From Takakia lepidozioides (lineage: Eukaryota; Plantae; Bryophyta): a DNA stretch of 64,000 nucleotides. The translations under genes were made by a program, and so were the position numbers. Of this stretch, positions 7,568 through 56,159 are shown piece after piece. A model generated the notes under the pieces. It did not search any database. It was not told the origin of the DNA and was given only the letters and a program-made list of their open reading frames with translations. How positions within the stretch are numbered: the first letter of the stretch is position 1; every line of letters begins with the position of its first letter. The stretch covers positions 65,596,001-65,660,000 of the forward strand of contig CM060732.1 of assembly GCA_030704615.1 (NCBI GenBank), read 5' to 3'.

Positions 7568-10500
7568 AAAAAGGTTAAAAAACTTTAAAAGTTGCCCATC
7601 ACGGTAGCGTGAACAGACTTAGAGCGAGCGGGAGGGAGAGAGAGAGAGGGTTGGGACTTAGAGCGAGCGAGCGGGAGAGAGGGCAAACATGCATGGGAGG
7701 CCCGCAGTTGGATCAACCTTCGCATCTGGAGCAAGCAACCCTAGAAACGCTAGGGTATGTGTGCGAGGAGGTTTCGGTTGGGAGCCCGCCGTTCTTGGGA
7801 GAGTCAGCTTCGTCTTAGCAGGCCGTGTTTCAATCTCTACCCGCTCGGCCCTGATTTTACAGCACGGAGCAGAGCTGGCATGAGTTTCTAAAAGATCCTT
7901 CACGATGGTGGGACAACCGCAATCGCAAGGTGTGGCTTTTTCTTAATGTACGATGTGAAGAAGTTTGTCCATCCTGCAAATGTGGGTTGTTGGCTCCTGT
8001 TAGTACCATGATTTGGTATTCTTCCTGATGTTTACAAGGTTCTTGGGAGAGTTAGCTTGGTCTTAGTAGGCCGTGTTTCAATCTCTGCCCACTCAGCTGC
8101 ACCGTGGTGGTTCTCACTGACCAATCCGACATTACCTAACTACAGACACAAGCAGCACACACTAGAGGTCATCTTGGGTTCATGTTCAGTCAAATCCTCC
8201 ATGGGTCATGACACAAGGTCGAGGACAATGTGGTGAGGGCACCTTCTTCTTCGACCTATTTCAGCCTATTTTGCCCTCTCATCAGACTCGGCCCTGAATT
8301 TGAATCATGGAGCAGAGCTGGCATGAGTTTTTTTAAGATCCTTCACAAGGGTGCGACCGCAATCGCAAGGTGTGGTTTTTTTTTAATGTACGATGTGCAG
8401 AATTTTGTCCATCCTGCAAATGTGGGTTGTCGGCTCCTGTTAGTACCATGATTTGATATTCTTCCTGATGTTTACAAGGTTCTTGGGAGAGTCAGCTTGG
8501 TCTTAGCAGACCGTGTTTCAAAGTCTGCCTGCTCAGCTGCACCGTGGTGCAGGTTCTCACTGACCAATCCGACATTACCTGACTACAGACACAAGCATCA
8601 CACACAAGGTCAAATCCTCCATGGGTCATGACACAAGGTCAAGGACAGTGTGGTGAGGGCACCTTCTTCTTCGACCTATTTCAGCATGTTTTGCCCTCTC
8701 ATCAGACGCCCTGAGATGCATATTGAATTTTGTAAGTTAGCTCATTGCTCGTTGATAAGTAGGGTTGGGGGTGTTTGCTGGAACAATTATAGGCTGTCAT
8801 TGTCAGCTGCTAGCAGAAAGGCAAGGATTTATGCATAGATAGCTGAAGGATTTTGTGCAGAGGCATAGATAGCTGAAGGAGCAGGGATAGAGTGTGGGCC
8901 CAAATTCGTCCAAGAGGGCCGGATTTTAAGCTCCATTATTTCAGTGTCATCCATTCAGCCAGGGATTTCCTGGTGACATTGCCAAGGCTTTACTCGCAAC
9001 ACGATGCTTGTAAAGCTTCCTTAGCTTGAATGCTGATTATGCTTGAATTATTAGGTTTGTAAAGCCAGTTTTGAAATTTTCATGGTAATCAGCTCTCTTG
9101 AAAATCTGTAGGTTGCAAGCCATTTACAGCGGGCCGTGGGTGGACTGGAAGACAGCCATTGAAAGTCCTGGTGCAAGTTAATACCAGTGGAGAGCAGAAT
9201 AAGCTTCATATGCCCTTTTGGTGCTAGTTATCTTCATGTATGGTACTGTTGAACACCAACAATCTTTTGGTGAGATTCTGTCTTGGTGCACATTCGGTAA
9301 TGTTTGTTCTGAAACCTGAAGGCGTGAAATGACTCAACACAACAAGAGCGTTACGCGTGTCACAGTACAAGCTGTAAGAAAGCAAGAGATACATAGTTAT
9401 ACAGTCAAACATACAACTATCAGTTTCTGTGGAATCTCTTGCCAATGGCTGGGAATAGCCAAGTCAGGAGGTGAATGCCTGTCAAATTACCACATGTCCT
9501 TTTGAACACTGCCCCTGCCCTGGTGGACATGTACGCCAATTGTGGGTGCATTGAGGATGCAAAGGGAGTGTTCAACACTGTGGCTGAACGAGATGTGGTG
9601 TCGTGGAGTGCGATGATTGCTGGGTATGCACAGCTGGGGTGCGGGATGGAGGCTCCAACCTTTGAGAAAATGATGGGGGAAGGGGTGAAGGCCGCCGACA
9701 TAACGTTTGTGTGCGTTTGCAGTGCGTCTGCAGCCCTGGAAAAGGGCAAAGAGATCCCTGGTGACATCATCAAATCTGCAATTGTACCAGATGTCATCCT
9801 GAACATGGCTCTGGTGGCCATGTATGCTAAATGTGGGAGCATTGAGGATGCCAAGGGAATGTTCAACACTATGGCTGAACTAGATGTGGTGTCATGGAAT
9901 GCGATGCTTGAAGGGTGTGCAGAGCAGGAGCGCGGGATGGGGCTTTGGACACCTGAAAGCAAATGATGGAGAAAAGGATGAAGGTACCTTCTTCACCATA
10001 TTTCACCCTGTTTTCCCTGCTAGTGTTTGCTTTGACAATTCTAGGCTGTCATTGTCAGCTGCTAGCAGCAAGGTGAGGATGTAAGCATGATTTGTGCAGA
10101 GGCATGGATAGCTGAAGGAGCAGGGATTTCGTGTGGGTCCAGATTCATCCAAGAAGGCCAGATTTCAAGCACAAGATTACCTGTGATTCCCTGTGGATCA
10201 ATAGCTACAAGAAACTTGCATGGGTAGATGGTCAACTGGGAGCAGCGGCACAAGTGATAAAATCAAGCATTGCTAATGAAGGCATCTTCTTCAACACATT
10301 TCACCCTGTTTTTCCCTCTTATCAGAATCGGCCCTAAATTTACATGTTCAATTCTACAAGTTAGCTGGTTGAGTGAATCTAGTTTGGAGTGAGTTTGACA
10401 TGATACTGCCAATGTGACAACAGGAAAGTGTCAAAAAATAGGTAACAGAGATGAGGAGAAGCTGTGGAATGAATACTTATCTGAGCCCAGTCACTGATGG

Positions 10501-10710
10501 GTCAACCGGGGCAGAAAGGTGAATGCCTGCTACATTTCAGAGAGTAGCAGACGCAATTCAGCATACGAACTAGTGTGCTACGCTGAGTTGGGTGTTTCCT
10601 AGAACAAATGTAGGCTGTCATTGTCAGCTGCTAGCAGCAAGGCAAGGATGAATGCTTGATTTGTGCAGAGGCATGGATAGCTGAAGGAATAGAGATAGAG
10701 TGTGGGTGAC
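7568..10710 (+). repeat. Mosaic of repeated modules of the local PPR-pseudogene family
   Basis: Module gttcttgggagagtcagcttggtcttagc... at ~7791, 8040, 8480 and ~51705. Module ctaggctgtcattgtcagctgctagcagcaagg at ~8790, 10041, 10611, 30275, 63921. There is a ~440-bp tandem duplication across ~7860-8715. Confidence 0.85.
9475..9966 (+). pseudogene. PLS-class PPR fragment (S-P-L-S-P motifs)
   Basis: ALVDMYANCGCIEDAKGVFNTVAERDVVSWSAMIAGYAQLG...ITFVCVCSASAALEKGKEI...MYAKCGSIEDA; no N-terminus or E/DYW domain. Confidence 0.9.
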
Positions 10711-13267: not shown

Positions 13268-16200
13268 ATGGCTTCCTCTGAAGCGGAGTTCTTCTCTGAC
13301 GACAAACCAGTGCCGTTCTCCCAGGAAGTCCTTGACAATGGATTTGTATTGTTCTGGAACATGTCTTGGCTACCCGTTTTCAGCTTCAGAATGGCTCCAT
13401 CTTTTTGGAGAAAGAGGTGTACGATTTGAAAGGGAAGTTGTTGAAATACTCTTTCCAAAACCGTGATGAGACGGCTCATATCAGCCAGTGGAGAGTGCGC
13501 CCTGGTCGATACAGAGTACTTGGAGAGCCTCGGCGAAAGTCCCTTGGGTCATATGTGACGCCCGGGACTGCTGCTTCGGTCGTTGAAGACAAGAGGGAGG
13601 TGGTGGTGAAAAAAGAACAGACGTCCTCCACTCCAATCGTTGAGCTTTCGGATTTGTCCGATGATGACATAAGTGAAATTCCAAATCCAGTCCTTCCTAC
13701 TGTGGTTGGAGAAGCTGATGAAAAAGAGATTTGTAGTGTCATTCCAAAATTACGGGCGATGGGAGGAATGGTTGGATTCAAAAGTGAGTTGCGAGGAATT
13801 GATTAGGAATCTTTGAAGCAGGTGCCTGTGAAGTTCTTGCCAGAGACTTTTGATGGCGATATCCTATTCGAGCTGCCTCCTCCTCCGCGAGTTGAAGGTG
13901 TAACAATCATGATGCATGGAATGGACAAGAAACACGACGGGCACCCGTGGTGCAGAACAAAAACATCCAATATTCAGAATGATGACAAACTTGTTTTCAG
14001 GAGAACAGTTTGCAATGGACACCTTAGGTGTGATAATTTGAATTGAAGACACTTTCTTCAGTCTGGGGTTCATAATCAAAGCAAATGGGAGGGTCTAGCG
14101 GAAAATCCATTTCAGCCTGGGACTGCCCCTCCACCGGCAAACACTTTCGTCTGCAAATTCTGCAAACTTGTGTCATCCTGCTTGGCGCTCTGCGGAGCAA
14201 GAATATACTATGTTGTCCACCGTTTGAAAAAATGACAAGAGCTTGTGTGCATTTCGGATTCCATAACCATCCTGTCTCGAAGGGGGATTACAGGGAGAGT
14301 GTTGAGACAGTATCGAGGTTGATTAAACAGGAGTTTGGGAGAAACCCATCTGCAACAACATCTACAATTGCTCTTGGCGCAAGCAAGTCCTTCTTGGAAA
14401 GCCATATTTTGAGTGAAGGGGATTTTGTGGGGACTAAACTTGACGGTGTAGCATTGGACCTGATCATGGATCATTTCTCCACTTTGAGTTCACCTAACAT
14501 TCGGCATCAGATCAATGCATTAAGAATGGCTCTGGTATCAGAGGCTACATAGACAACATTTTGGAGTTGAAACAAGTGAGCAAGTACGATTACATCCAAG
14601 ACAATGTATTCCCAGGTCAAGGTGCCATCAAAGTTTTTCTTTTCAAAATGTCGACTGTTGGGGAGGGCAGTGGGGTTAGCCTCGTGAAGCAGATGCAGAA
14701 GACTGGGGACTTGCAGAACTGTTTTCTTATGTTTGATCATGTGAAACAAGTGAAGGATTGGACGACAATGGCTTGTCATGTCTACGATCCAGTGTACCAA
14801 TGAGTTATGACAATTGCAGTTTGTGACATGCAATCCGACGGAATCCCAGAAGCTCATGTGGAATTCCCTGATACGTGTCATGGGCTGCCATGGGCTGCCA
14901 TCTCCAAATTTCGCAGGTTTCATGGCGGATAGTGCTCAAGCAAATTTCTATGTTGTTCGTATTGTCTTCGGATCGGGCGACCCAAAAGTGCCAATGTGAG
15001 GAAGAGAGCGTACATGTCTATTCCATTGGACACAATCTCTGGAAAAACATACAAAGTCGGACATCAAACCAGAGATGCAGACTCAGCACTGTAAATTGTG
15101 CAAAGAGTACAAAGATGCTAGAACAATGAAGGAGGCGGACACTTTGTTCCAAACAATTCGTGCCTGGTGGTTCTCTTATGGAGCTGCATCACTTGAGAGT
15201 ATGAGAGCATTGGAAGATTGGCTGGCGTTTTGGCATTTCCGGTATAGACAGTGGGGAGCAGCCATGGCAGTGGTATGAGGCTTATATTTCTTGCTTTATT
15301 CATACATTTACTTTCCATTTTATTGTGTCCTCGATTTCTTTATGTTGTTTTCTGTTCACTATTTTGAAGTGTGGTTCTGCACTTTGTAGAACATGTCCAT
15401 TAAGGAAATGGCGGATATGCCATCTTGCAATTTGGCAGAAACTGTGCACAATGCATGGTTGCCGCAGTCTGGGAAACGAGGTCGGGATTTGTATGTGGCA
15501 ACAACAAATGATTTGATACGTGCCTTGCAACAACAAACCCGATAACGTGATTTCTTACGAGGTGGGGTTGGTGGCAAGGGTCCGGACAAATGGGAGTTGA
15601 TGTTGCGTGCTGCAAACAGATCCGGGGATCCAATCAAGATAGCACGGGCGGTGAGCATGTATGCCCAGGGAACGCCATTTGTTTCTAGAGTTCCACATCT
15701 TGAAGGGGAGGAGAGATTCGGCTCCTGTAAGAGGAAATTGAACACTCCACCTGGTTCGGATTCCGATTCCCACAGGGCAGACCGTGATAACTTCTCAAAG
15801 CCTCGTGTTCCCCTGCATGACAGCTCCATGTCCGGAACCTCCATTGTAGAGGAACCTCCAACACAACGGCAAGTCCAGCATCAAATAGTGCCACTGAAAT
15901 GGTGCAGGAGATAAACAACCCCCTTCATGTGCTTGAGTCCGCATGCCCCGACCACGTTTGGCACATAGAACGCATAAGTGTAGGGTCTCGTGTGAAATGT
16001 ACAGCGATCAGGGCAACTAATTTCGAGAAGTGCACTTCATCTATATCCAGAGGTGGTGCCCGAACTCCTGCTCCGACTTTCACGGGTTTGATGCGTCCAT
16101 ACGGTCAACCAGAAGCCAAGAACCACAAGTTCTGGTTCTGCACAGATGATTGTGCCAGATGTGTGCATGGAACTGTGCGTCCTTCCGTAGTGATGAAGCC

Positions 16201-16774
16201 ATCTCCTCCAACCGTTTGGCCCGTGAAGGTGGGAACACATCTCAGCTTTCAGGAGATTGAAATGCTGGAGGAGGCAAGTTTTTCCCTTGTGAGACAACCC
16301 CAACTCCATACATGTGCTACTACTTCTGCATCCTCCCGGGTCCCCCCGGCAAATCCTGACATGTGGCCAACCAAATGAGATGGAAAGCTCGTTCGGCGTT
16401 TCCCTCCAACCGCTGAACACTTTGGCAAAGTAGAGTCCGCAAGAATGCTCCAAGCTCGTGTTGGAAGCACCACGGAAGTACCCGATCCAGGATATGGTCG
16501 GGTATTCACAATCATCACTTCCACATCTGCTGTTCATGACAGGACCTACGACATCACGGTTTCCAATTTCCCCAATTGCACATGTCCTGATTTTGTGAAT
16601 ATGCTATCAACCAGTTTGGGCAAGAGAGGTAAATTCATACCCTGCAAACATTTGTATTTCATATTTTTGAAGAGGATGGTTTGCGATCCCAAACGTGACA
16701 ACTTCATTCACCAGGTCACTATGAGTTTCAACGAGGTCGATACTCTATTGCAGCGGGATACAACACATGGGTAG
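13268..16774 (+). pseudogene. Mutator-family transposase with GCM/WRKY-like N-terminal Zn domain, DDE core and C-terminal SWIM finger; stops and frameshifts
   Basis: DGHPWCRTKTSN...CNGHLRC...CKFC...HFGFHNHP; LMFDHVKQV; FMADSAQAN...RERTCLFHW (MULE D...D...CxxH); LAETVHNAWL after a short intron (~15273-15389); SWIM CTCPDF...PCKH at ~16577-16650. Confidence 0.85.
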
Positions 16775-17409
16775 CATCAACTATGCAATGTGGTATGTGG
16801 ACGACCATGATTTGAAATGTGCAATTCACATCAATTCGTCGGCGGTGCAATGATATGGCCTCCAACTATACGGAGTGAGCTCTGAGTGGCAACTTTAAAA
16901 GCACATTTGTCATTGCACCGTTCGAAGTCTACATGTCTTGCTGTCGCTATGCACTACAATCATCTTTTGAAGATGATCCTAACTCTCATTGTTATTTGAG
17001 GAGGGAGGAAGGTCTTCCCGTGGCAGCCTTTATGGCGCACACTTTGTGAGGATATTTTCTCGTCCTCGTAATTGTAAAAGTGAAACAAACATTTGTAATT
17101 GCACAATGTTGGATGCTACAATTGTAGGCCTCATGGTAGTCTTGATTCTATTTAGGCAAGATTCCCTGCATTAATTCCACGGTCATAGGATCATCCTCGG
17201 TTATAGGCGACGCATGTTAATGCTGACGTGGCAGATGACGGACAGTGCCACGTCATCATTTGCCGCCACATCAGCATGCTGACATGACGCTCACGCCACG
17301 TCAGCGTGGGTGCAGGCTCACGCCACGTCGGCTGGCGTGAGCGTACGCTCACGCCACGTCACTCCTGCGTGAGCGTACGCTCGCAACGCTCACGCGCAAC
17401 GCTCACGCC

Positions 17410-17941
17410 ATTGCCACACACTAGTATACCACTAGTCCACCACTAGTCCAACCACTAGGCTGCCCACTATGGCAGTCACTAGTCCACCACAATGATAAGA
17501 ATGAAGCCACAAGCTCATGCGAGCTCACAAAACTGAAGCATAAACTCAGTCAAATACACCCCACGCCATGGGAATCCACACTACGGCGCCATAGCTAGAC
17601 ACGGTGAGACTCAACTCGAGAAAGATGAGCCTACCGCGCTTGCCGTGAAGTTAACCACTCCAGGGCCTAAATCTGCCTTGACCCCTGGATTGACACTTGG
17701 GCCAATCCTAAATGTCAATATATAAAAGCTAGCTATTTCCTAGCTAGTTTCACACTAGTGGTGAAATAACTTGACAGTTGTCGTGCGCATACATATCGCT
17801 ACACAACTACATCGCTGTCCAAAACCACACCACACACAAGTATACCACTAGTCAGCCACTCGTCTAGCCACTAGTCCAACCACTAGGCTGCCACTAGTCA
17901 GTCGCTAGGCTGCCCACTATGGCAGTCACTAGTCCACCACA
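17410..17941 (-). repeat. 3' LTR region of the Gypsy element (TG start at 17941 after the PPT), with a tandem partial duplicate of the LTR start at ~17413-17491
   Basis: ctaggctgcccactatggcagtcactagtccaccacaa occurs ending at 17492 and at 17942; TATA-like sequence at 17719-17727; shares blocks with 28209-28390. Confidence 0.7.
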
Positions 17942-18204
17942 ATCGCCCCCCTAGCTGGTGCTTAAGTCCCTCTAAGTCCAGGTAGCCACAAGATGAGATA
18001 GTGACAGTAGCCTCACTAAGTCCTCCACCACTATCCCTGCTACAGTCAAACTTGATAGATCAAGAGGCCGGGTGCAAGAGTTGCCCCATCGTTAGTCGTC
18101 GTCTTGCAACCTGTGAACTTGAGCCTGGGATCTTGTGTATTAACTCCTATGAGCTTGGCCTCCCATGTCTTTTTAGCTGCCTCTAGTCATGTCCACTGCC
18201 ACTA

Positions 18205-18360
18205 TCCCAAGCGGTGTAGACACAACCAATCTCCATCAGGAACCTTCTCAAGAGGTGGTGTCAAGCATCCCATGTGCCACCATCTTGAGCATCGATCATA
18301 CACCAGCATAGTGGCTGCCCCTTTGGCAGACCCACAGAGCATGCACCTCAAACATGCAGG
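18205..18360 (-). other. PHD finger at the integrase C-terminus
   Basis: CMLCGSAKGAATMLVYDRCSRWWHMGCLTPPLEKVPDGDWLCLHR fits the C4HC3 pattern with the typical W-H-x-x-C-L-x-P-P-L-x-x-x-P-x-G-x-W-x-C tail; two ligands are mutated (C->Y, C->R). Confidence 0.88.
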
Positions 18361-21300
18361 TACCACTGCCAAGTTTGGGTCAACTCTGCCATCGACATTG
18401 GAAAGGTGACATGGCGCACAATTACGCACATGGTCTTTCCAAGTCATGCCATCCCGACCCTCCAAGATCAGGACTCCTGAGGGCAACACCTCTTGAACCC
18501 TCAGAATAACACGCACTGCAGTGACATCCAGGGTCGTAGGAGCAGTCTGCTGTAAATAAACATAGTCACCAGGGCTAAACCTCCGAACCCCAAGACGATA
18601 TCCTCTACCACGTATAGTGGCATACCTCAACGTATTACGGTGCTGTGCAATGGCAAGGTTATCAAAAGCCATGGGCATGACTTTCTTGAACAACTCTGCA
18701 CACTGATCACATGTATGTACCCACACGTCCGGATCGTCAAGGTTAAGGACTTGAGTAGTGTCCCTACAAATGGTTGTAGGCAAATCCGGCTCCGGCCAAA
18801 GAGAAGAAAAAATGCTGAGAATGAGGCAAGTGATGTTTGCTTGCTGAACCGGTAGCCCATGGCTAACCAAGGTACCTGAAGATCCCAATATCCTAGGTGT
18901 CCCTTCTGCAAGCCATACTTGCGCAAACCCCTCTTCACCGTCTGAACAACTCTCTCTGCCAAAGCCATCGGCCTCAAGATGCAGATCCCGAGAAGTGGTG
19001 CGGTGGTCTATCAAGGCTTTATCACACAAAGCCTGAAACTCCCCCAAGAACTCTCTCCCTTGGTGTGAGCACCTCAACTGGAGCACCGAATTGGCTAAGC
19101 ACACGATCCAAGAATGCATACGCAACCCCCTCACTAGCCTTGTCAGGCAATGGAACCAACTCAATCCACTTGGAGAAGTGCTCTACCATCACCAACACAT
19201 ATCTGTGGTGGCGCATAGTCAGTGACAACGGTCCTGCAAAGTCAAGACTCCACCTATAGCCCAATCCCATGATTGGTAAAGGATGCAATGGTGGTATAGG
19301 GGCGTTGAATGAAGCACGCACCCTGTCACACACCATGCACCTAGCCACGAATCGTTGCACCTCTATGTGCATACCACGCCCACCAATACTGCCCTTGCAG
19401 TAAACTATGAGTGCGTCGCACTCCAAAATGTCCTAACTCCTCATGGGCATGCCGCACTAACCGTGCACGCTCAGTTGGGTGAGGCACAATCCTCACCCAA
19501 CCATCCTCCCATACTTGGAGCATGTGTATCCCCTCCCACTTGAACCTCTTGGCTCATTGCAGGATCCGATCCCTCTCCTTGGCAGTCACAGTGGCTGCCG
19601 TGTCTCCAATACGGACGTAGTCCAACACGGCCGAATCCTCATATATATCTTTGGCACCACCTGGCTCGTCACTAGCCTCAGGGTCCTCAGACACTCCGTC
19701 TACAGTCATCTCTGTTGTAGGTCCAATCTGACCTCCCGCTGCCAAGATACACAAAAATGCAGATGCGTGCCATCCGGGCATCATCTCCTCGTCCGTCTAA
19801 CCATGCCACCGAGCTCCAGTGTCATCATGTTGGTTCGTGCATGGATTGCAACTCAATCCATCCGCATCCCGATTTACCAAACCCGGTCGATACACAACCT
19901 GAAAATCATACTCCTGGAGTATGAGTGCCCACCGTGCAAGCTTCCCCGTAAGCTTGTTTGACTCCATCAACTGCTTGAGTGGCTGGTGATTTGTGACAAG
20001 GGTGAAGAGATTGCCATATAGATAGCACCTGAAGTGTGCCACGGCCTACACTGCAGCTAAGCACTCTCCCTCATATGAGCTGTACTTAGCCTCTGCAGCA
20101 TTGTTCAAGCGGCTAACATAAGCCACTACGAACTCTCTTCCCTCATCATCCACGTGTGTGAGCACCGCTCCAAGCCCCAACATGCTCCAATCCGTATGCA
20201 GCTGAAAAGAGACGCCCCCTGATAGGTCGTCTCAGGATAGGCGCCGAGGTCAACCTCGCCTTGAGCTCTTGAAAAGCTCGTTCCTGCTCATCTTCCCACT
20301 GCCACTCCTGGTCCACCTTGGTCAGCTTGGTTAGAGCCTTTGCGATAGCACTAAATCCCTTGACAAACCATCTATAGTAGTTTGTTAACCCCATAAAAGC
20401 TCAAACTCGGCTTACATCCGTGGGGCGTGGAATTTGTGCAATGGCCTCTACCTTAATCTGCTGTACCCCCAATCCTCCAGGATATATCATGTGACCCAGA
20501 TACTCAATCTGGTTGTGGAAAACTTGCACTTCCTTGGATGCAACTTCAATCCGTGCGCTCTCAAGCGCTCCAATACTACCTGAAGGTGTCTCTCATGCTC
20601 CTCCACCGTAGCACCAAAGATGATGGTGTCATCTATGTAGCACCGAGCAAAGTCCACCCCCGCTAGAATCCTATCCATGACTCTCTGAAACTCTGTATGA
20701 GCGTTCTTAAGCCCAAATGGTAAGAATCGCCACTGATATAGGCAATCCTTGCCGTGCTCATTGATCCCCCAAAATGTCGTCTTCTACTTGTCCGCCTCCT
20801 TGATCGGCAACTAGTGATATCTGGATCGTAAATCCAAAGTGCTAAAGACCTTAGCATGCCCAATGGCATCAAAGATCTCCTCCGGTGTGGGCATGACATA
20901 CTTATCGGATTTAGTATGATGATTTACAGGCCGATAATCACCGCACATACGTCTCTCCGTCCAATTGCCATAGACATCCTTCTTGGCTGGCATCACTGTG
21001 GCTGAAGCATACTCTCCACCAAAGAGCTCCACCAAACTTGCCTCCCAGAGATCTTGAGTCCTCATCTGAATCAAAGACCTCTCCATGTCACTGTATCTAT
21101 AGGGTCTCCGAAAGATTGGCGTGTCAGTGGCCAACTCAATACGGATCTCTTGACCCTTCAGTGCTCCCAAGTCCTTCAAACTGAAGGCAAAGCAATTCCT
21201 GTAAGCCCTCAAGAACCGCCGTATACGTCGTCTCTCTCCTCCGATGACAATGGGTCCAATGTCAGGCTCCCAATTGTCCTCCGTAATTGCAACCTTAAGT

Positions 21301-21639
21301 CCAGTGGGCTTAGAGGTAGAGGACGCGTCCAGTGGTTGCTATGTTGCAACCTCTTGAGCAGTACTCCCTACCTGCTCAATCACTGAGGCCTCATCCTGCC
21401 CCATCATCTCATCCTCGAGGACTTTCTCAACCCGAGAAAAATCCCCAACCTCATCCATCACCGCCGCCTTGGCTGCCAACTCCCTCTGAACCTCGAGCAC
21501 CTCCCACGTGTGCGATGGATGTCTGCACCCCGTGGTGCTCACCTGTGTGCCCCCACTCACTGCCTGTACCGTCTCGGTAGGCAGAGTGACCATCGAGGGA
21601 AGTGTACTCTGCACTCTGTGTTACTCAGCCATAGCCAAG

Positions 21640-22590
21640 CTGATAATCCAGGTCAAGCAATTGAGATCCATGGCTTGCCCCAACACCTGACGACGTGATG
21701 CCTCAGAAAGAGACGGCATCGCCGTGGTACCAGTGGTAAAATCCAGCGCCCGCTCACGCTCGTCAGCATTAGGCTCCACTAACTGCTACAACTGAGTATC
21801 CCACAGGAGGTCGGGTCCACTATCTCGGAAAACATGCGATCCTGGGAAGCTGAGCAGTGTAGGTAATGTTGTTCGTGGTTGACCCACCTTGTTGACCACT
21901 GCCAAATGCGAACGGTCATCGTGTCTCACACGCTGAGACTGCCTCCATATGTCCAAAATGCTATCCACTGTGAGGTGTGCTGGCCGCTGTACCCCATCAA
22001 ATGCACGCTTGAGCAGTGCGGGTGGCATCAAGTTAGTCCACCATAGTCGTGGACGATGAGCCCGTGACCCCACTGCTGCTGCATCCAACAACACTGCTGA
22101 CCCAAGCCACGACCGGACTTGATGCACACTAGCCATCACCCTTGCCCGAGAATCACCCATCAGTGGCACATTCTCCAAAATGTATGTCGGAAAATGTATG
22201 ATGAAGCTGTAAGTGGCGCAAAACCCGCACCATCTCCCAAAACAGACCCGACCTCGAGTCTCGCAATCCATTGCCATGTCTGGCTGATGAATGCATTGGC
22301 AAGGCCAACCTGCCACTACCAAGTGGATGGAGCCAACCCGCTCCAAATCTTGCACCCCCAGTAAGGAAATGTCTGCTGATAATGCCTGCTAGTATCCACA
22401 AACTGCAGACAACGGCAACAACTCAGCATACTGCTGTACCAACTAGGCAACATGGCGAAGTGAGACGCGTCGTGCAGTCTCATCCCTCTCCATATACAAG
22501 TAACGCCAAACTCGTACACCTGCCTGTAGCACAACAGCCAATCCGGTGCTGATCCCGCCAAACAAGTCCAGAAGGCAAATGCCTTCATCC
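21640..22590 (-). pseudogene. DNMT3-like C5-cytosine DNA methyltransferase catalytic domain inside pol
   Basis: Motif I LLDLFGGISTGL (~22575-22540); II YLYMERD; IV VVAGWPCQ (22313-22296); VI ILENV (22175-22167); VIII SRAHRPRLWWTNL; IX/X ERERALDF...RRQVLGQAMDLNCL (~21765-21650). Contains stops and frameshifts. Confidence 0.92.
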
Positions 22591-25500
22591 GGATACTGCC
22601 ACACACTAGGTGTGGTGTCCAATGGAGACAACTAAGGTGGTCCTGGTGCAATCCCCGCACTCTCCTCCTCTCCTGATGGTACAAAAGCCTCTACCCAAGC
22701 TTGTTGCACCCGTCGATCAGCCTCCCGCTGCAAATCCTTGCTCGTGCCCCACAATGGAGTCTGAGCAACCATGGCAGACAACTCCACCATACCATACATG
22801 TCATCCTGCTCTCATGGAGGCCGTGTGTCATCCTCTGAATGAGCGTTGCCCTCTAGCAACTCTCCAGGCCAAGTCACTGCAGCCGTGAATGCTGCCAGAG
22901 TCGACATCTTGCCTCGCTGGGCAACCACAACTCCTCCTACGAACGTCACAGGGAGCTGCACACGCCGACCTTCCCCTGACTGCCATCCAGACCTATAGGA
23001 AGCTGACTCCTCCCAAAAATCTAGGATGAAGCCCATGGGGTACAACACTGCCCCAGCAACCAAGACATCATACGAGACCGCGTCTGTCACAATGGCCTTG
23101 GCTCGCAACATTGAGCCATATGTAGGGTGATCCGGCCGTAGTTTGATAGTCAACTCACGCCGTGTCATGCCCTGAGCCTGCTCCGATCCTCCCAGAGATG
23201 TCTGTATCTGGAAAGGATAAGGCTTCATATCCGCCTCCGTGACGCCCAAGCCTGCAATAGCAGCTCTGCCCAGCATCAATGGTTGAAATCCCGAGTCCAA
23301 CAAGACTCGCTGTGCCCGGTATCTCTTGCCTGCCGGTCCACTCAAACAGAAAATGTCATCCTGGTTATCTAACATGACAACCATAGGTGTCACCATGGCG
23401 CGCTCAATGACTGACCTTGCTGGCAGCTCCGCCAACCTGACAGTTGTAGCTTGCCATGGCGCCGCCGTGGCAGTCTTGACCCTCATATCCAAGGATCCCT
23501 CTGTCACTACACCTCCCACTATCTCCGCACAAGATGAAGTAACCTCCCCACTCTCACAGAAGTGTAGCTGCCAGCCTGAACACCTCAGCTGGTCTTACCC
23601 CCGGCGTCGCAATCATGGTAGTCGAGAACAATGGAGCCTGACACACAGATGTGGCCGCCCCCAACAGCACACTAGCTGCCGTAGCCTTGGCAGTAGGTAG
23701 TGATGCTGCTCGTGTGGCTCTCCCTAATGGCACAATAATCTCCGCCTCGGTAGCAGTCGGGCGAGAACTAGGTACCATGGATGGCGTTGAAACTGTCTCC
23801 ACCAATGTGAATGATTGAGGCAGCCTAGCTTGACGGCTTGCCTCCCCACGCTGTGGATCCAACTCCACCTCCGTACCTCGTGGCTCATGAACTCGTGCTG
23901 CTCATCGAGTCACGGCTGCAGCAGACTCCACCTGCACTGGTGGTAGTGCTACTCCGCACATGAATCCCATGTCTCCCATATCTCCTCCCTCATGAATCCG
24001 GCCTTGGAGTCGGCACCACCTGAGTTGTGGCCATAGCAGCAAGCCTCTGCTCTAGCTGCTGAAGCCGGTTAGCCATGCATTGGTCAACACCTTAACCTCC
24101 ATGTCCTTGGCCATGCTGAGCTTGCCCTTGGCATGCACCTTGTGCCTGACCACCTCGTCCTCTCTGGGCTGCTCCACCTCGCCCCCGGCCACCATTGTTC
24201 CCTTGGAACTGGCCTGGGCGCAACTTAGGATGCAAACCATAACACTGGGCCTCTCCATGCCCGTGCTTGCCATAATGCCTACATTGCAACTGTGCAGGCT
24301 GTACATGTGCCGACCCTTTGCCTCCCTCTGGGCAATCCTTCTTGACATGGGGTCCTCCACATGTCCAACACACCACCTCCGCCCGTTGTTGGCCTGCAAA
24401 TGAAGGGAGAGACACCTGCATCTGAGGTCCTCTCTGTCCTTCCCTGGGCTTCACCTGAGCCCCCTTGTTGCCTTGAGCATGTTGAGGTAGTGGTTGGCTA
24501 GGAGCACCACTACCCCGTGGTGTCTCCTTAGCAAATCCCACCATGACCACTCGTTCCTCCACCATGTTGAGCTCTATCCGCTCTGCCAGCAAAAACACAT
24601 TTGCTAAGGTGGGTTGGGCCGCTTGTAGGAGAGTTTCATCCCGCACCATTCTCCTCAGCTCCTTGTCCAATATCCCATACATTGGACTACTTGAGCTTCC
24701 GCAACCCCTTGGGTTACATTTATCAAGCGCCTCATGCGAGTGAAAGCCTCCCTCAAGCTCTCAGTCGGCTTCTGTTGGAACTCTTGCAAGCTCCGCAACT
24801 TCTCTGTCATCACCCCTTGGTAGTTCTCTCTCAACTCTTCGAAGAATTCCACAACAGGGTTGACGGCAGGCACGGGTACTAGTGCTGGTGCGGCACTGGC
24901 TTGGGTGGACATTGTAGCTACGGTACCACTTGTCCCCCTAGTCCCACTAGTCCCACTGCTGCTTGTTGAAGCTGCCGGTGCAGCTACAGGTGTAGCCACT
25001 GCCCTCGTGGCTCAAGTGCCCCTAATGATAGAGACATAGTCGGGTGACCAATACATCATTCACTCCTCGATCTCAACCTCATGCCCCCGCCTGAACTCAT
25101 GGTAATCATCCATGGGCGGCCCCTCAAGATGCTGAAACAACCCTTCCATGCCATGAAAGACGTAAATAGTTGTGGATTGTGCATTTGCTGCAAATCACAC
25201 CAACTATCAAACTCTTGGATAAAATCGTCCAGTTCAATGGTGCCCACTACTCCAGAGTACCTACATGCCCCCTTGGTAGCTCCATACATCTCCTCCATTG
25301 TGTCCCACAACAATGGTAAGGAAACAACTTGCACCGCTGGTGTGAGTCATCTTGATTCACAATCCGAATCAGAACCTTCCGTAGAAGACACAGGAGGTGA
25401 AGGTGGCCTAAACCACACACTTCGTCTCGTGTACCCACTACTATCGTTAGTGCTCGAACCGGCACTCTCCCTAGCAACTAGTGGCACCTCCGTGTTGACA

Positions 25501-26209: not shown

Positions 26210-26735
26210 GGCCACCACAAACCAGCACAGGCCCACACAGATCACAGGTCACAGCCATCATAGCCCCATATAGGCCACAACCTGTCACAGCCCTACACAG
26301 GTCACAGGGTCACAGCCCATCACAGCCCCACAGGCCACAACCTGTCACAACCCATCACAGCCCTACACAGGCCACAACCATCATAGCCCTCACAACCCCA
26401 CAGGCCACATATCACAGCCTATCATAGCCCCAAAGGCCCCAAAGGCCACAGGGCACAGCCTGTCACAGCCCCACAGGCCACAGATCACAGTCTATCACAG
26501 CCCCACAGGTCAGAGGTCACAGCCTGTCACAGCCCCAAAGGCCACAGGGCACAGCCTGTCACAGCCCATCACAACCCGTCACAGCCCCACAGGCCACAGG
26601 TCACAGCCCATCACAGCCTATCACAGCCGGTCATAGCCCCACAGGCCACCTGTCATAGCCCATCACAGCCCTACACAGGTCACAAGGTCACGGTCCCACA
26701 GGCCACAGTCTGTCACAGCCCGTCACAGCCCCATC
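26210..26735. repeat. Degenerate (CACAGCC/CACAGG) tandem minisatellite in the Gypsy leader
   Basis: Dozens of cacagccc / cacaggcc / tgtcacag units. Confidence 0.9.
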
Positions 26736-27490: not shown

Positions 27491-28208
27491 GGTAATATCA
27501 GCCCCCTATCTTGGCTCTTTGGCTCCTTGATGCTCTCTAAGACAAGACTAAGCACTCCACAGCCTTTGCCAAGCTCTTGAAACCCTAAGGCTTATATTTC
27601 CAACCACAAGACACTCCTCTTGTGGTGCAAGAGCTCTTTTTCCAAGCTCTGAAACCTTAGGTGCACATTCCATGGCCTTGTTGCACCTCTTAGCTCCTGT
27701 TCCAGCCCTTCTTGCCATGGCAAGAGCCCTCTCAATGAGCTCGAGATTGAAACCCAATCTCAACATACTCCACCAAGTGCACTGATTTGCCCCAAAGCCA
27801 AATCAGCCATCTTGCTTGATCTTTTACTCTTCCGCACCATGGAAGCTCGTATTCCCAAGGTCAGTTCTCAGATTTGCCGCCAGAGCCACTATAACTTGCT
27901 CTCATTCAACCTCATATGCTCATGACTAAGCCTCTTCCCACTCGTGCTCACCGCACACAATCTGAAACTATCAAGGTGCTCTGGAATTACCTGCAGCACA
28001 GTGCTTTCATCTTTGAAGATGAAGATCGAATGCCAAGGTCTACCACCTTGTAACCAACATCGCCTCTGCTTCTAACAATCAAGAGCTCACGGTGCTCCTT
28101 GCATAACAACCTGGTTTCTCTAATTTTCAGGCAAAAACTAGAAGTGCTACAACGCAACTCGGACCTGGCACTCACAGACTCGAGCTGATCTTTCTCGAGT
28201 GATAACGA

Positions 28209-28390
28209 TGAAGAATACAAGCACAAGCTCATGCGAGCTCACAAAACTGAAGCATAAACTCATGCGTATATAACCTCATCACTCAAATACAAGTCAAGCC
28301 AAGTGCACCCCACGCCATGGGGAATCCACACTACGGCACCATAGCTAGTTTTCCTAGCTAGTTTCACACCAGTGGTGAGATAACTTGACA
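28209..28390 (-). repeat. Truncated, internally deleted 5' LTR of the Gypsy element
   Basis: cacaagctcatgcgagctcacaaaactgaagcataaactca and ttcctagctagtttcacac..gtggtga.ataacttgaca are shared with 17507-17776; the 17599-17730 segment is missing between agctag microhomologies. Confidence 0.75.
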
Positions 28391-29439: not shown

Positions 29440-29750
29440 GCAGGTGGCATGATACTGCAAAGATGAGAAGAATGATCAAGGTCAGAGGGGTTAGAAAAGA
29501 GCCAGGTCGCTGTTGCATTGAGGTTGGCAACAGGGTGCACACCTTCGTTTTAGATGACAAGTTGCATCCCATAATTAAGGAAATCCATACTGAGTTGAGA
29601 AGATTGTCTAGGCAGATGCAAGAGGCGGGGTATGTGCCTCACACGCGCGTTGTATTGCATGATGTGGGGGAGGAGGAAAGGAATTTTCTCTTTGCCACCA
29701 CAGTGAGAAGCTGGCCATTGGTTTTGGGCTGATCAGCACGACCGCTAGGA
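29440..29750 (+). pseudogene. Isolated E+/DYW deaminase fragment of a PPR gene, fused to a repeat module
   Basis: KEPGRCCIEVGNRVHTF...HPIIKEIHTELRRLSRQMQEAGYVP..., then (frameshift) HHSEKLAIGFGLISTT; truncated before CxxC. Confidence 0.88.
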
Positions 29751-30315
29751 CGAGATAGCTTGGTCTTAGCAGGCCGTGTTTCAATCTCTGCCTGCTCAGC
29801 TGCACCGTGGTGGTTCTCACAGACCAATCCGACATTACCTGACTACAGATAGAAGCAACACACACAAGAGGTCCTTTTGGGTTGATGGTCGGCCAAATCC
29901 TCCATGGGTCATGCCACAAGGTCAAGGACAATGTGGTGAGGGCACCTGCTTCTTCGACCTATTTCAGCCTGTTTTGCCCTCTCATCAGACTCGGCCTTGA
30001 GATGCATATCGAATACTGTAAGTTAGCTCGTCGGGTGCTACTGTAATAAGTAGGGTTGGGGTGTTTGCTGGAAGAATTTCACACCGTCAGTGTCAGTTGC
30101 TAGCAACAAGGTTGAGGATGTATTCATGATTGGCCCTAAATTTCCATGTTGAATTCTGACCCCAGTCAATGGTGGGACAACTGAGGCAAAAAGTTAAATG
30201 TATGTTAGATCAGAGAGTAGTAGACGCAATTCAACATAGGAACTAGTGTGATTAGGTGTTTCCTAGAACAAATCTAAGCTGTCATTGTCAGCTGCTAGCA
30301 GCAAGGGCAAAGATG

Positions 30316-33246
30316 AATGCATGATTTGTGCAGAGGCATGGATAGCTGAAGGAGAAGGGATAGAGTGTGGGTCCAGATTCATCCAAGAGGGCCAGATTTC
30401 AAGCACAAGATTACGTATGATTCCCTGTGGATCAATAGCTACAAGAAACCTACATGCGTAGATGGTCAACTAAAGGTAGCAGCTGCAGCGGCACAGTTGA
30501 TAAAATCAGGCACCTCAACCATGACCACAGCTTCTGGAAGATCAGGATCAAGAGAGGGAGTCCACAATGCCTCTTCTGGCACTTCTGGGCATGTGAAGAT
30601 GCTTTGCCAAGACTGAAAGAGGCTCTACAGACTTTAAACCAAGGAGGCATTTCAGGAGATACGTATGTCTGTCTCTTGCATAAGTGCATCAAGATTAAAG
30701 GCCTTGAAGCTGGAAAGCAGGTGCACACTCACACAAAGTGGATTTAGCCAAATGTTTTTCTACTCAACACCCTTGTCAACATGTATGTTAAGTGCGGGAG
30801 CATCATGGATGCTCACCAAGTGTTCAACAGAATGCCTCAACCATCTTTGATCACGTGGAATATAATGTTGGCAGGATTTACCAAGCATGGGTGGTCAAAT
30901 CCTCTATGGGTCGTGCCACAAGGTCAAGGCCAATGTGGCGAGGGCACCTTCGTCTTCGACCTATTTCAACTTGTTTTGCCCTCTCATCAGACTCGGCCCT
31001 GAGATGCATACTGAATTGTCAAGGACAATGTGGTGAGGGCACCTTCTTCGTCGACCTATTTCAGCCTGTTTTGCCCTCTCATCAGACTCGGCCCTAAGAT
31101 GCATATTGAATTTTGTAAGTTAGCTTGTTGGGTGGATCTGTGGTGGTTTGGAATGACTTTGACAAGTAACTGCCGATGTGGCAGCAGGAAAGTATCAAAA
31201 AACAGATAACAAAGATGAGGATCTACCAAGCATGGGTGTGGTACGAATGTTTTGGAGACCTACGAGCAAATGATGCATGAAGGGTGAAGCCCAACCACAT
31301 CACGTTCATTTGTGTTTGCAATGCGTGTGCAAGCCTGGGAGCCCTGGAAAAGGGGAAAGAGGTCCACGATGACATCAAAGCTGGAATTGTACCAAATGTC
31401 ATTTTGAACACTGCGCCCTTGGTGGACATGTATGCCAAATGTGGGTGTATTAAGGATGCAAAGGCAATTTTCAACAATATGGCTGAACGAGATGTGGTGT
31501 TGTGGAGCGTGATGCTTGTTGGGTATGCACAGCAGGGATGTGGGGTGGAGGCTTTGGAGACCTATGAGCAAATGATGGGGGAAGGGTGAAGCCCAACCAC
31601 ATCATGTTTGTGCGTTTGCAATGCGTGTGCAAGCCTGACAGCTCTGGAAAAGGGCAAAGAGGCCCATGGGGACATTGTCAGAGTTGGAATTGTACCCGAT
31701 GTCATTTTGAACAATGCCCTCGTGGGACATGTATGCCAAATGTGGGAGCATCGAAGATGCAAAGGCAGTGTTCAACAATATGGCTGAATGAAATGTGGTG
31801 TTGTGGAACGCAATGCTTGCAGGGTATGCACAGCAGGGGTGCGGGATGGAGGCTTTGCAGACCTATGAGCAAATGATGGTGGAAGGGGTGAAGCCCGACC
31901 ACATCACGTCTGTGCGTTTGCAAGCCTGGCAGCCTTGGAAAAGGGCAAAGAGGTGCATGGTTGCATCGCAAAAGCAGGAATTGTACTAGATGTGATTCTC
32001 AACAATACCCTCGTGGACATGTATGCAAAATGTGGGTGCATCGAGGATGTGGAGGGAGTGTTTGACATTATGGCTGAATGAGATTTGGTGTGTGGAGTGC
32101 AATGATTGCAGGGTATGCACATCAAGGGTGCGGGATGGAGGTTGAGCAAATGATGGGGGAAGGGATGAACCCCGACCACATCACGTTTGTTTCTGTTTGC
32201 AATGCCTGTGCAAGCTTGGCAGCCCTAGAAGAGGGCAAAGAGGTCCATGGTGACATCGTCAAAGCTGGAATTGTACACTGCCCTGGTGGACATATATGCC
32301 AAATGTGGGTGCATTGAGGATGCGAAAGGAATGTTCGACATATGGCTGATCGAAATGTGGTGTCGTAAAATGCGATGATTGCAGGATATGCCCAGCATGG
32401 TTGTCATAGGGAGGTCCTGCAACTATTTGAATGAATGCAAAAGAATGGCTTGAAGCGAGACAGTCTCACCTTTATATGTGTTCTCTCTGCATGCAGCCAC
32501 ACTGGCCTACTAAATGAAGGAAATCAAGATCATGGTGTCACTCCGACAGTAAAGCACTTTGGCTGTATGGTGGATCTTCTTGGACAACTGGATGAGACAA
32601 TGGATCCGATTAATAAGATGCCAATCAATCCAAATGTTGTGGTGTGGAAAGCCTTGCTTGGTGCCTGCAGAATCCATAGCAATGTGGAGATGGCTGAACG
32701 TGCGGCAACATCTATCCTCAAGTGGGATGAACATGATGCAATATGTGTTGCTATCAAACATCTATGCTGCAGCTGGCAGGTGGGACGATACTGCAAAGGC
32801 GATAAGAATGATGAAGATCAGAGGGGTTAAAAAGGAGCCAGGTCGCTGCTGCATTGAGGTTGACAACAGGGTGCACACATTTGTCGTAGATGACAAGTTG
32901 CATCCCAGAATTAAAGCAAATCCATGCTGAGCTGAGAAGATTGTCTGGGCAGATGAAGGAGGCAGGGTATGTGCCTGACACACGCTTTGTATTGCATGAT
33001 GTGGGGGAGGAGGAAAATGAATTTTTTCTTTGCTACCACAATGAGAAGCTGACCATTGGTTTTGGGTTGATCAGCACGACCCCTAGGACGCCTCTCCATC
33101 TCATCAAGAATCTTCGAGTGTGTGGTGACTGCCACACCTCTACCAAATTCATTACAAAGATTGTTGGCTGAGCAATTGTTGTATGGGACGCTAACCGCTT
33201 TCACCACTTTGAAGATGGGATTTGTTCTTATGGTGATTACTGGTGA
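30316..33246 (+). pseudogene. Near-full-length PLS-E-DYW PPR (C-to-U editing factor type) pseudogene, interrupted by repeat modules
   Basis: Transit-peptide-like N-terminus and HVKMLC..RLKEAL; several P-L-S triplets; P2L2S2/E (VWKALLGACRIHSNVEMAERAA); PG box; CYHNEKL...KNLRVCGDCH...DANRFHHFEDGICSYGDYW* ending at 33246. Many frameshifts and stops. Confidence 0.93.
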
Positions 33247-43368: not shown

Positions 43369-43868
43369 NNNNNNNNNNNNNNNNNNNNNNNNNNNNNNNN
43401 NNNNNNNNNNNNNNNNNNNNNNNNNNNNNNNNNNNNNNNNNNNNNNNNNNNNNNNNNNNNNNNNNNNNNNNNNNNNNNNNNNNNNNNNNNNNNNNNNNNN
43501 NNNNNNNNNNNNNNNNNNNNNNNNNNNNNNNNNNNNNNNNNNNNNNNNNNNNNNNNNNNNNNNNNNNNNNNNNNNNNNNNNNNNNNNNNNNNNNNNNNNN
43601 NNNNNNNNNNNNNNNNNNNNNNNNNNNNNNNNNNNNNNNNNNNNNNNNNNNNNNNNNNNNNNNNNNNNNNNNNNNNNNNNNNNNNNNNNNNNNNNNNNNN
43701 NNNNNNNNNNNNNNNNNNNNNNNNNNNNNNNNNNNNNNNNNNNNNNNNNNNNNNNNNNNNNNNNNNNNNNNNNNNNNNNNNNNNNNNNNNNNNNNNNNNN
43801 NNNNNNNNNNNNNNNNNNNNNNNNNNNNNNNNNNNNNNNNNNNNNNNNNNNNNNNNNNNNNNNNNNNN
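43369..43868. other. Assembly gap (500 N)
   Basis: Run of N. Confidence 1.
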
Positions 43869-48139: not shown

Positions 48140-48820
48140 TAGACTAGAAGATGCAGATGACCTGGTGCATGCAAGGGGTTGGACAAGCGACCGCCTCATG
48201 GACTTCTGGGTTTCTTGCAAAACACTTACCCTCCCTACCACTGTACGCAGTAAAGTGCGATTTCTAGATAGTTTCACTTGGATTTGTCTTCGGGACCATT
48301 GCAGTGCATATGGGACAACAGTTGAGTCCATACAGACTTGTATGGACAGACGATTCCCTACTCTGAATTGTGTTGGTGTGGAAGCGCTCATTGTCCCTGT
48401 TACTTCTGAGTGAGTTTTCTGCACACCCTGCCCCTTTGTCTCGCTTCCATACGCATTTTGCATGTGGAATCGTGTGTTTCGTGGATATGACGATGCTGAA
48501 AGTCTGCATGTATTGTGCAGCAACCACTGGAGTGTCGTAATAATGAAACCCATGCGCCACCTTCACTTGAATAGCATTAAAAACATGCACAAACATAAGA
48601 GGTTGAAGCCACTGTTTGCTAGATTATGGGCTATGGTAAGAGGATTCTACCCTCCAGACCCAAGGTGGGTGGAGGCCACCGATCCTATGCGATGGGTGTG
48701 CCCCCCAGTTCCCCAGCAATCCTCCACATGGGAATGTGGCCTCTTTACAACTCATTACATTGACTTGTACCTTGACCAATGCTTCGTGAACCATGTGTCG
48801 GGTGGTGCAAGTCCGGTAAG
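48140..48820 (+). pseudogene. Ulp1/C48-like SUMO-protease fragment, typical DNA-transposon cargo
   Basis: GWTSDRLMDFW...RFLDSF...LIVPVTS|DNHWSVVIM (GT-AG intron 48410-48520)...HLNS...VPQQSSTWECGLF. His and Cys are retained; the triad Asp reads Asn. Confidence 0.8.
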
Positions 48821-48899
48821 CACTCAGTCGAACCTCCATGGTTTGAATCGCATTCCTCTTGGCAATTGTGCACGGGTGCCGTTTATGTCCTTCCACATT

Positions 48900-55333: not shown

Positions 55334-55569
55334 GGGGGTTGCTATTCCATGAGCTCATGAGCGGGCATGGCTCATCCATGAGCCGCAAAATAACACACTT
55401 CGAATTTCGGCAGATTTTTTTTGGGCCCAAAACTATAAAATAATCGAAAATCGAAGATTTCCGCGCTCATGCTGGAAGCACTCCGCTCATGAGTACCAGT
55501 GTACGCTCATGACTTGGAGCCCAGGCTCATGGACCGCCAGGCCAGGTCATAGAAAAACTGAATTCTGGG

Positions 55570-56045
55570 CAATAACGGCACCGAAATTATCCCAGAGGCA
55601 GAGACGCAAGTGGAATTAGGATCCGGGTTTGCAGACTCCGAAAACGCAATGGCGACCTATAACCGTGGATAGTACTGTTGCAGAAGTGCAGGATGGTTGG
55701 GTATAACGGCGCCGTAATTGGGCACAGGAAAAGAAATAGCCGGCTGAAGGCTCGGGAGTGAAGCCAACAATGGTGAAAGTAATTGGGCTCCACCAACCAA
55801 ATACCCGGCTGCATCCTCCGGAGTGCAGGCGATAACGGCGCCGAAATGGGCCCCGAAAACCAAATACTCGGCTGAAGCCACCGGAGTGCAGCCGATAACG
55901 GCGCTGAAATTGGGTCCGGAAACCAAATACCCGGCTGAAGGCTGGGGATTGCAACCAATAACGGCGCCGAAATTGACCTGCGGAAACAAAATTCTCGGCT
56001 GAAGCTTCCGCACTCCATCCAATAACGGCACCGAAATTGGGCTCT
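55570..56045. repeat. Subterminal ~63-bp tandem repeat containing ATAACGGCGCCGAAAT
   Basis: Units at ~55572, 55703, 55832, 55895, 55958 and 56022; related motifs near the right end (62152, 62284, 62350, 62416). Confidence 0.85.
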
Positions 56046-56159
56046 GGAGAGCAAATACCCGCCTTACGGTAAGGGAGGCCTTGCTCTCATTTTGCTCTTC
56101 ACTCTTCTCTGTTGTGCCCATCTCCTCCCTGCTTTGAGTTTGTGCTGTGTCGTGAGGCC

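Follow-up and report, generated by a model that had tools for sequence, protein, structure and literature searches.

A Gypsy retrotransposon bearing a DNMT3 domain is known from Klebsormidium nitens, in which de Mendoza and others described KnitGypsy-Dnmt3 (de Mendoza et al., 2018; PMC5890265), and DNMT3-Gypsy elements have been cited as “streptophyte” in the accessible parts of papers from 2025 and 2026. In the main text of PMC5890265 the Klebsormidium repeats are called DIRS-like, the order A-coding-B-A-B being spelled out for DIRS. The same text reports that the Dnmt3 domains of dinoflagellate DIRS elements carried out de novo CG methylation in yeast, and that the Klebsormidium Gypsy domain gave no methylation there, a result considered inconclusive by the authors, human DNMT3B being also inactive in this system. 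Why retrotransposons carry an enzyme that silences them has been an open question since 2018, one reason being that Symbiodinium and Klebsormidium, the known hosts, are difficult to manipulate. In other retrotransposons, according to the accessible literature, Gag:Pol ratios are set by in-frame stops located between Gag and protease.

The window, a stretch of 64,000 nucleotides of Takakia lepidozioides, harbours on its minus strand a Ty3/Gypsy element that extends from 28390 to about 17414, in the order gag, protease, DNMT3-like C5-methyltransferase (22586-21633), RT, RNase H, integrase and PHD finger (Table 1). A preliminary description of this DNA had placed the methyltransferase between protease and RT, collinear with pol and in the same orientation, but mentioned neither the PHD finger nor the split repeats nor the stop ahead of RT. 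The orientation was borne out, with the protease upstream and RT, RNase H, integrase and the PHD finger downstream on one strand. The domain does lie between protease and RT, but it ends a Gag-PR-DNMT open reading frame, with a conserved stop ahead of RT. The copy in the window is dead, carrying frameshifts and stops in the coding region. Its gag pieces are 44-69% identical, by piece, to Marchantia P0005 in tblastn, and a relative, L042, gives weak Asp_protease matches in Pfam.

Table 1. Parts of the DNMT3-bearing Gypsy element in the window, from its 5' end.
Feature	Position	Strand	Evidence
Terminal repeat A, 5' copy, starting TGTCA at 28390	28204..28390	-	Self-BLAST versus 17491-17776
Degenerate short tandem repeats within the long 5' non-coding region	26226..26731	-	TRF
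gag with zinc knuckles, frameshifts and stops	24000..25430	-	Retrotrans_gag E 8e-4, under curated cut-off
Aspartic protease (LDSG)	22950..23435	-	50-56% identity to the matching region of P0003, P0005, P0010
DNMT3-like C5 cytosine methyltransferase, motifs I-X	21633..22586	-	Motifs, PDB search, profile
Conserved in-frame TAG followed by CAA CCA, natural end of the Gag-PR-DNMT ORF	21333..21341	-	Read variants and relatives
Reverse transcriptase (RT), in frame with the TAG	20250..21200	-	RVT_1 E 4e-24 at 20951-20517
RNase H	19812..20210	-	RT_RNaseH E 8e-31
Integrase zinc finger and core, frameshifted	18400..19500	-	Integrase_H2C2 and rve, both under curated cut-off; tblastn
PHD finger, integrase C-terminus	18220..18345	-	PF00628 E 6e-8
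G-rich polypurine-tract-like stretch directly before repeat B	17946..17957	-	Inspection of ends
Repeat B, first copy, ending CACGACA	17779..17944	-	Self-comparison
Two-base spacer and second copy of repeat A (A = 17776-17491); junction CGACA-AC-TGTCA	17491..17778	-	Self-comparison
Repeat B, second copy, truncated	17414..17493	-	Self-comparison

The identity of the domain was assessed by motif, profile and fold. In six-frame translation, the C5-methyltransferase motifs previously named all follow one another in the canonical order on the minus strand, namely motif I (LDLFGGISTG, 22571-22542), motif II (22499-22479), motif IV (VVAGWPCQ, 22319-22296), motif VI (YILENV, 22184-22167), motif VIII (RAHRPRLWWTNL, 22064-22029), motif IX (ERERALDF, 21761-21738) and motif X (RRQVLGQAMDL, 21695-21663). 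The earlier picture of a decayed copy that retains the PC and ENV residues was right on both residues but understated the decay, as the domain contains three stop codons and changes frame for a stretch between motifs IV and VI. The X-read frame, compared with the PDB by phmmer, yielded 24 matches with E<=0.01, all of them DNMT3A or DNMT3B (best E 2.1e-5). By using a DNMT-only profile built from relatives, with the window left out, the domain was recovered at 22586-21633 with 393 bits and an E-value of 2.5e-121, and nowhere else in the window. The PF00145 search that the preliminary description recommended missed the decayed window copy but matched open relatives, namely L042 (E 1.8e-13) and Marchantia P0005 (E 8.9e-9). 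An AlphaFold model of the L042 domain (pLDDT 85) found DNMT3B as its best match, with Z 27.6, rmsd 2.6 and 268 aligned residues, then DNMT3A (Z 26.5), with M.MpeI (Z 24.8) and DRM2 (Z 9.3) as lower matches; every Foldseek match listed for this model was a DNMT3. Motif order, PDB matches and fold model thus agree with the original assignment of a DNMT3-like domain that is not circularly permuted. Since Pfam scans of the first ORF of L042 and of P0005 showed none of PWWP, ADD and DUF3444, the domain is described as DNMT3-like and not as a host DNMT3. A feature search of the protein atlas returned generic PF00145 clusters only, and the viral contigs held only phage-type C5-methyltransferases, with 29-48% identity.

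It is probable that the enzyme is active on DNA. Each of the clade's 29 first-ORF proteins retains GWPCQ and ENV, and 28 retain motif VIII as well. A quite improbable reading is that the element retains the domain for some function other than catalysis, for example to bind or coat nucleic acids inside the particle, with no methylation. The inactivity of the Klebsormidium domain in yeast, as given in the accessible text of PMC5890265, speaks for such a role, as does the change of PC to EC in motif IV and of ENV to ENT or ENA in many chlorophyte-linked and other outer relatives. Against it stand the motif counts within the clade and the catalytic Cys, which is retained even in the EC variants. 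CpG o/e ratios of 0.46-0.59 in four elements indicate CpG depletion, which fits self-methylation as well as host methylation.

The relatives show that the domain is native to the family and not a secondary insertion. The first search returned 56 longer relatives, of which the best are 59-65% identical, with named proteins from Marchantia, Calypogeia, Sphagnum, Closterium, Haematococcus and Monoraphidium; a Klebsormidium relative (P0293) is also present. Run X1 gave 96,648 contigs along an 11.5-kb stretch, over the domain as well as over RT, the summed contig depth not being equivalent to copy number. One contig from a second organism spans 19959-22674 and thereby crosses the domain boundary. 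Protease and RT occur together in 36 of the 65 metagenomic loci, and the domain lies between them in 36/36, a count that is biased because a DNMT or protease pattern had been used to retrieve these loci. The preliminary description had named copies lacking the domain, or introns or a target-site duplication of its own flanking it, as signs of a host gene inserted later; the 36 loci carry the methyltransferase at the same place, and it has no introns. That a host DNMT3 gene or fragment entered the window copy alone therefore has next to no probability, given the shared position across mosses, liverworts and streptophyte algae, the lack of introns and DUF3444, and the contigs of two organisms that cross the boundary.

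Selection on the domain was estimated by dN/dS, as had been suggested. Between L042 and L045 the values were 0.12 for DNMT, 0.10 for protease and 0.04 for RT, the first indicating purifying selection on the methyltransferase. The window compared with the Sphagnum-type elements gave 0.07-0.10, near saturation and with low-identity columns filtered, and the decayed Sphagnum-type copies compared among themselves gave 0.38-0.56, about equal to their RT. The proposed extension of DNMT3-Gypsy elements to land plants is upheld by the named Marchantia, Calypogeia and Sphagnum proteins together with a moss-like host gene in the window. No vascular-plant name occurred among the named matches of the two relative searches, a weak negative, most matches being unnamed. 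Two members of this plant element family, P0491 and P0054, are labelled cyanobacterial or Minisyncoccia in public records, and are probably plant DNA in metagenome bins.

The feature that sets this family apart is the stop between methyltransferase and RT. In the window a TAG at 21341-21339 stands 114 codons past motif X and directly precedes CAA CCA, and RT lies in its frame. Positions 21333-21341 show no variant at or above 5% in any of four runs (X1, X2, X7 and X9), and at the neighbouring positions 21331 and 21344 most of the depth in those runs carries a difference. Of the 38 Sphagnum-type loci that cover the junction, 37 carry TAG (26) or TAA (11) at the equivalent codon and one carries TAC, and the next most stop-prone of the 466 codons examined is a stop in 26%. 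In L042, open frames of 1369 and 1047 aa are separated only by TAG CAG TTA; L045 also has TAG CAG TTA, and L041, which is too short to show RT, has TAG CAA CCA. The stop lies 100, 114, 131 or 148 codons past motif X, the linkers being widely different and CAR coming next in each. In agreement, the proteins of 12 clusters end 71-148 aa past motif X with no RT, the full-length ones being Gag-protease-methyltransferase, and five Marchantia models all end 98 aa past motif X. In the DNMT tree a single branch (support 84/97, recovered in 88% of bootstrap trees) separates the 14 stop-type rows from the rest; for 11 of them the stop-type label was taken from the protein end and not from DNA.

Other relatives read without the stop. 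It is absent from the five readable loci of another subfamily (L059, L060, L062, L064 and L065), in which the frame runs from the domain into the RT-side linker, and for P0049, P0252, P0387, Closterium P0043 and Klebsormidium P0293 the prediction is one protein without it; of these, P0252 shares an 18-row clade with the window and L042 in the RT tree. Marchantia P0007, P0009 and P0010 and Sphagnum P0028 are gene models that join the domain to RT with the junction omitted, which may reflect an annotation artefact or real splicing.

The hexamer after the stop suggests how it is passed. CAR-YYA is the TMV-type readthrough signal (PMC2194720) and gave 6-10% readthrough in Arabidopsis (PMC2754532), as reported in the accessible parts of both articles. 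An in-frame stop with this signal and an open downstream frame was found in the window and L041 (CAA CCA) and in L042 and L045 (CAG TTA), and the Sphagnum-type hexamer CAA CCC matches five of six positions, one base off. Readthrough is, on these grounds, the likely means of passage. A -1 frameshift at GGATTTT upstream of the stop was also considered and was dropped, RT being in frame with the stop. No shared structure was seen by eye in the 90 nt past the stop when four sequences were folded.

Expression of RT to integrase by reinitiation, an internal promoter or splicing instead of readthrough is unlikely, and the Gag-level excess of the enzyme may still hold under it. Reinitiation is possible in Sphagnum-type copies because an ATG follows the stop, two codons past it in 36 of the 38 loci, and in L045 an ATG lies a few codons past it; against this, L042 has GTG where L045 has ATG, and the window family has no in-frame ATG at or above 5% between the stop and 21255. 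The gene models that skip the junction favour splicing, but a possibly RNA-derived contig (from run X7, its RNA status being a guess) crosses the junction unspliced. A precedent for passage by another route is the in-frame gag stop of Candida Tca2, which gave no readthrough in a yeast reporter according to the accessible text. On the other side, RT and the stop share one frame except where a private indel falls between them, and the starts called for the second ORF differ (M, V, L), with no conserved AUG evident.

Because the conserved stop follows the methyltransferase, the enzyme ends the Gag-protease ORF, and with RT and integrase probably produced by readthrough it would be made at Gag-like levels. 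We therefore favour, with reasonable confidence, a model in which the bryophyte Gag-PR-DNMT3 ORF ends at a leaky UAG, and the enzyme is likely packaged and likely methylates the cDNA before integration. In this model the methyltransferase would be made with every Gag, and the UAG would be read through at a low rate to give RT, RNase H and integrase-PHD. Readthrough of 5-10% is reported for TMV and MuLV, and at such a rate the enzyme would exceed RT and integrase about ten- to twenty-fold. The element protease would free the methyltransferase, which may be packaged with Gag and could methylate the new cDNA inside the particle, ahead of integration. A new copy would then carry methylation from the moment of its arrival, and the host would keep it silent. 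A leaky stop that assigns a captured enzyme acting on chromatin to the abundant Gag product would imply that the dose of enzyme matters to the element.

As to the substrate, cDNA as the main one has a slightly better than even chance. It is also conceivable, though we hold it improbable, that the readthrough is real and the enzyme acts mainly in trans in the nucleus, on genomic copies of the element, as a self-limitation of copy number, or on host DNA. A Gag-level output would seem excessive for one cDNA per particle; slowed transposition was raised as an option by de Mendoza and others (PMC5890265), and in Physcomitrium de novo methylation of heterochromatin is carried out by DNMT3, as far as the accessible parts of these sources state. 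However, the first ORF holds no targeting domain (PWWP, ADD or DUF3444), the PHD finger being beyond the stop, on the integrase, and in chlorophyte relatives the domain follows RNase H inside Pol, which fits a job at the cDNA.

The CHD4, PHF21A, ATXR5 and KDM5 fingers are readers of unmodified H3 tails. All four are among the closest solved relatives of the PHD finger of the element, and it may, as a guess, steer insertion away from active promoters.

The ends of the element depart from a pair of complete identical LTRs, which the window element does not have; it shows split repeats in the order A-coding-B-A-B instead, also present in L011, L017, L064 and L065, and the same four loci carry a G run at the polypurine-tract-like position. 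An internal B-A junction composed of CGACA or TGACA, two bases and TGTCA occurs in the window and in L001, L015, L017, L042 and L064, with CA-NN-TG at 17776-17779 in the window, L001:15435-15438, L017:10350-10353, L042:8659-8662 and L064:8268-8271. Ends of the form TGTCA...ACA with a 4-bp target duplication were found in four of the five loci checked (L008, L011, L017 and L065; not L064). No target-site duplication is readable in the window because the terminal CACGACA of the second repeat B is missing; a palindromic stretch (17299-17394) lies directly past the truncated 3' repeat, where the terminal bases of the element should be. By eye, no TGG-type tRNA primer-binding site was seen after repeat A in the window and four loci. 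The junction looks like two joined integrase-processed ends and, with no tRNA primer site seen, it suggests an unusual regeneration of ends, in which both ends of the element would be copied from the internal junction and then cut by integrase.

The wider family was examined in two trees: a DNMT tree in which 40 of 74 rows were kept (long branches and redundant rows dropped), with phage C5-methyltransferases as outgroup and composed of element and phage rows only, and a quick RT tree drawn from the family alone. Both trees unite the window with Calypogeia, Marchantia and Sphagnum-type elements (RT 97, DNMT 99/100). Klebsormidium is represented by one DNMT row in a basal polytomy and by a distant branch in the RT tree; its P0293 is 42% (DNMT) and 44% (RT) identical to the window, and the two are not sisters in either tree. 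The Sphagnum-type RT (L001) is 84-86% identical to liverwort RT (P0010, P0266) and 75% to the window RT, a pattern that possibly fits old parallel lineages or transfer among bryophytes.

A second position of the domain was found among relatives of the second ORF. In the 120 matches listed, the DNMT lies between RNase H and integrase in 38 and ahead of RT in the same protein in 11, and 71 have no DNMT within the predicted protein, as expected because such products start after the domain. A profile search added 131 representatives at 50% identity (83 RNase H-DNMT-integrase, 12 with DNMT ahead of RT, 36 with the domain alone), proportions that favour the chlorophyte layout because the 572-position profile included RNase H and integrase flanks. 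The named members with the RNase H-DNMT-integrase layout are the chlorophytes Haematococcus, Tetrabaena and Scenedesmus; this layout forms one clade in the DNMT tree (100/99) and one in the RT tree, the latter with two additional rows without the domain. The large chlorophyte-linked clade comprises P0036-P0055, P0286-P0355 and P0358-P0488. The same metagenome loci also hold a second, distant DNMT3-Gypsy subfamily without the stop (L059-L065); L065 carries a nearby PPR gene, and the RT of Calypogeia P0310 groups with this subfamily.

Beyond the element, the window contains an intron-containing, SDF2-like (MIR domain) host gene at 254-2890 on the plus strand, whose named matches share 147 of 178 residues in Sphagnum, 140 in Physcomitrium and 127 in a fern and Ginkgo; this points to a bryophyte, probably a moss, although no liverwort or hornwort SDF2 appears among the 120 matches listed. 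The PLS-DYW PPRs previously noted for this genome are indeed present in the window as PLS-type repeats and a DYW domain. Decayed, dispersed PLS-type copies with shared flanks lie at 8040-10700, 29440-33200, 50950-52740, 54700-55340 and 62900-64000, one of them ending in the DYW domain (about 32965-33200), and these segments look to have been duplicated as a unit. A region at 15821-16774 with a weak SWIM zinc-finger match (16379-16771), a similar-looking ORF at 57395-57892 and an Ulp1-type protease fragment at 48414-48902 are likely remains of Mutator-like DNA transposons. Arrays of a 63-bp tandem repeat occur at 55703-56061 and 58549-58913, and fragments of another Gypsy element (protease, RT) at 44726-45448 on the minus strand and about 43974-44144 adjoin a 500-N gap (43369-43868).

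Annotated Gag-PR-DNMT3 proteins of 1278-1281 aa with catalytic motifs are present in Marchantia polymorpha, and these, with its methylation mutants and transcriptomes, make the question of why the enzyme is carried testable. Element copies can inflate DNMT3 counts in bryophyte genomes, and some of the methylation that is usually attributed to host enzymes could come from derepressed elements. More speculatively, and on balance doubtfully, a green-plant-wide PHD-Gypsy clade would have carried an active DNMT3-like enzyme since before land plants and shifted it between two positions; in the clade of the bryophyte elements a TMV-type leaky stop would raise the enzyme to the abundance of capsid protein and give methyltransferase-filled particles, with pre-methylated copies integrating through ends restored from the CA-NN-TG junction and no tRNA primer, and derepressed elements would add de novo methylation to the host, Marchantia included.

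In the accessible parts of the literature searched, which include PMC10952607, PMC9516144, PMC6453930 and bioRxiv 10.1101/363937 and leave subscription journals outside their scope, neither DNMT3-Gypsy elements in bryophytes nor the chlorophyte layout nor the stop was found to be reported; the supplements of PMC5890265 and of later papers may hold bryophyte sequences.

Compared with known systems, as given in the accessible text of each source, several partial likenesses emerge. SymbioDIRS-Dnmt3 and SymbioLINE-Dnmt (PMC5890265) and the EpiLTRs (bioRxiv 10.64898/2026.05.21.726589) are likewise retrotransposon-borne C5-methyltransferases, but they belong to other retrotransposon classes or carry a DNMT4-related domain, with no DDE-integrase Gypsy of the window layout. 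MuLV, Tj1/Tosmo (bioRxiv 10.1101/2022.12.06.519325), SIRE1 and TMV share an in-frame readthrough-type stop with a high upstream:downstream ratio; in MuLV and Tj1/Tosmo it lies between Gag and protease, whereas in the window family it comes past the protease and the captured enzyme. Gypsy-7a_cRei (PMC9940879) and REM1, both absent from our trees, have a PHD finger in a green-lineage Gypsy polyprotein, but no methyltransferase is listed for Gypsy-7a_cRei; the term “PHD” is absent from the main text of PMC5890265. The host PpDNMT3a/b (PMC6453930) and animal DNMT3A/B have the same unpermuted catalytic domain, the latter two being the best PDB and fold matches, but the element domain is without DUF3444, PWWP and ADD and is about 25% identical to the animal enzymes. 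The likeness to the Klebsormidium element that had been proposed extends down to the repeat layout. KnitGypsy-Dnmt3, as described in the accessible text, has the Gypsy order PR-RT-RH-IN with a DNMT in the coding region (PR-DNMT-RT-RH-IN in P0293), an unpermuted, intronless Dnmt3-like domain ahead of RT with key residues kept, DIRS-like split repeats and purifying selection on the domain. Relative to it, and with no earlier report found, the bryophyte hosts, the conserved stop after the enzyme and the chlorophyte layout appear to be new. In Klebsormidium the domain shares its ORF with RT and RNase H, whereas in the window family a stop lies between them; because this same-ORF feature is lacking, the window element, in a land-plant host, is regarded as a related variant and not as a member of KnitGypsy-Dnmt3.
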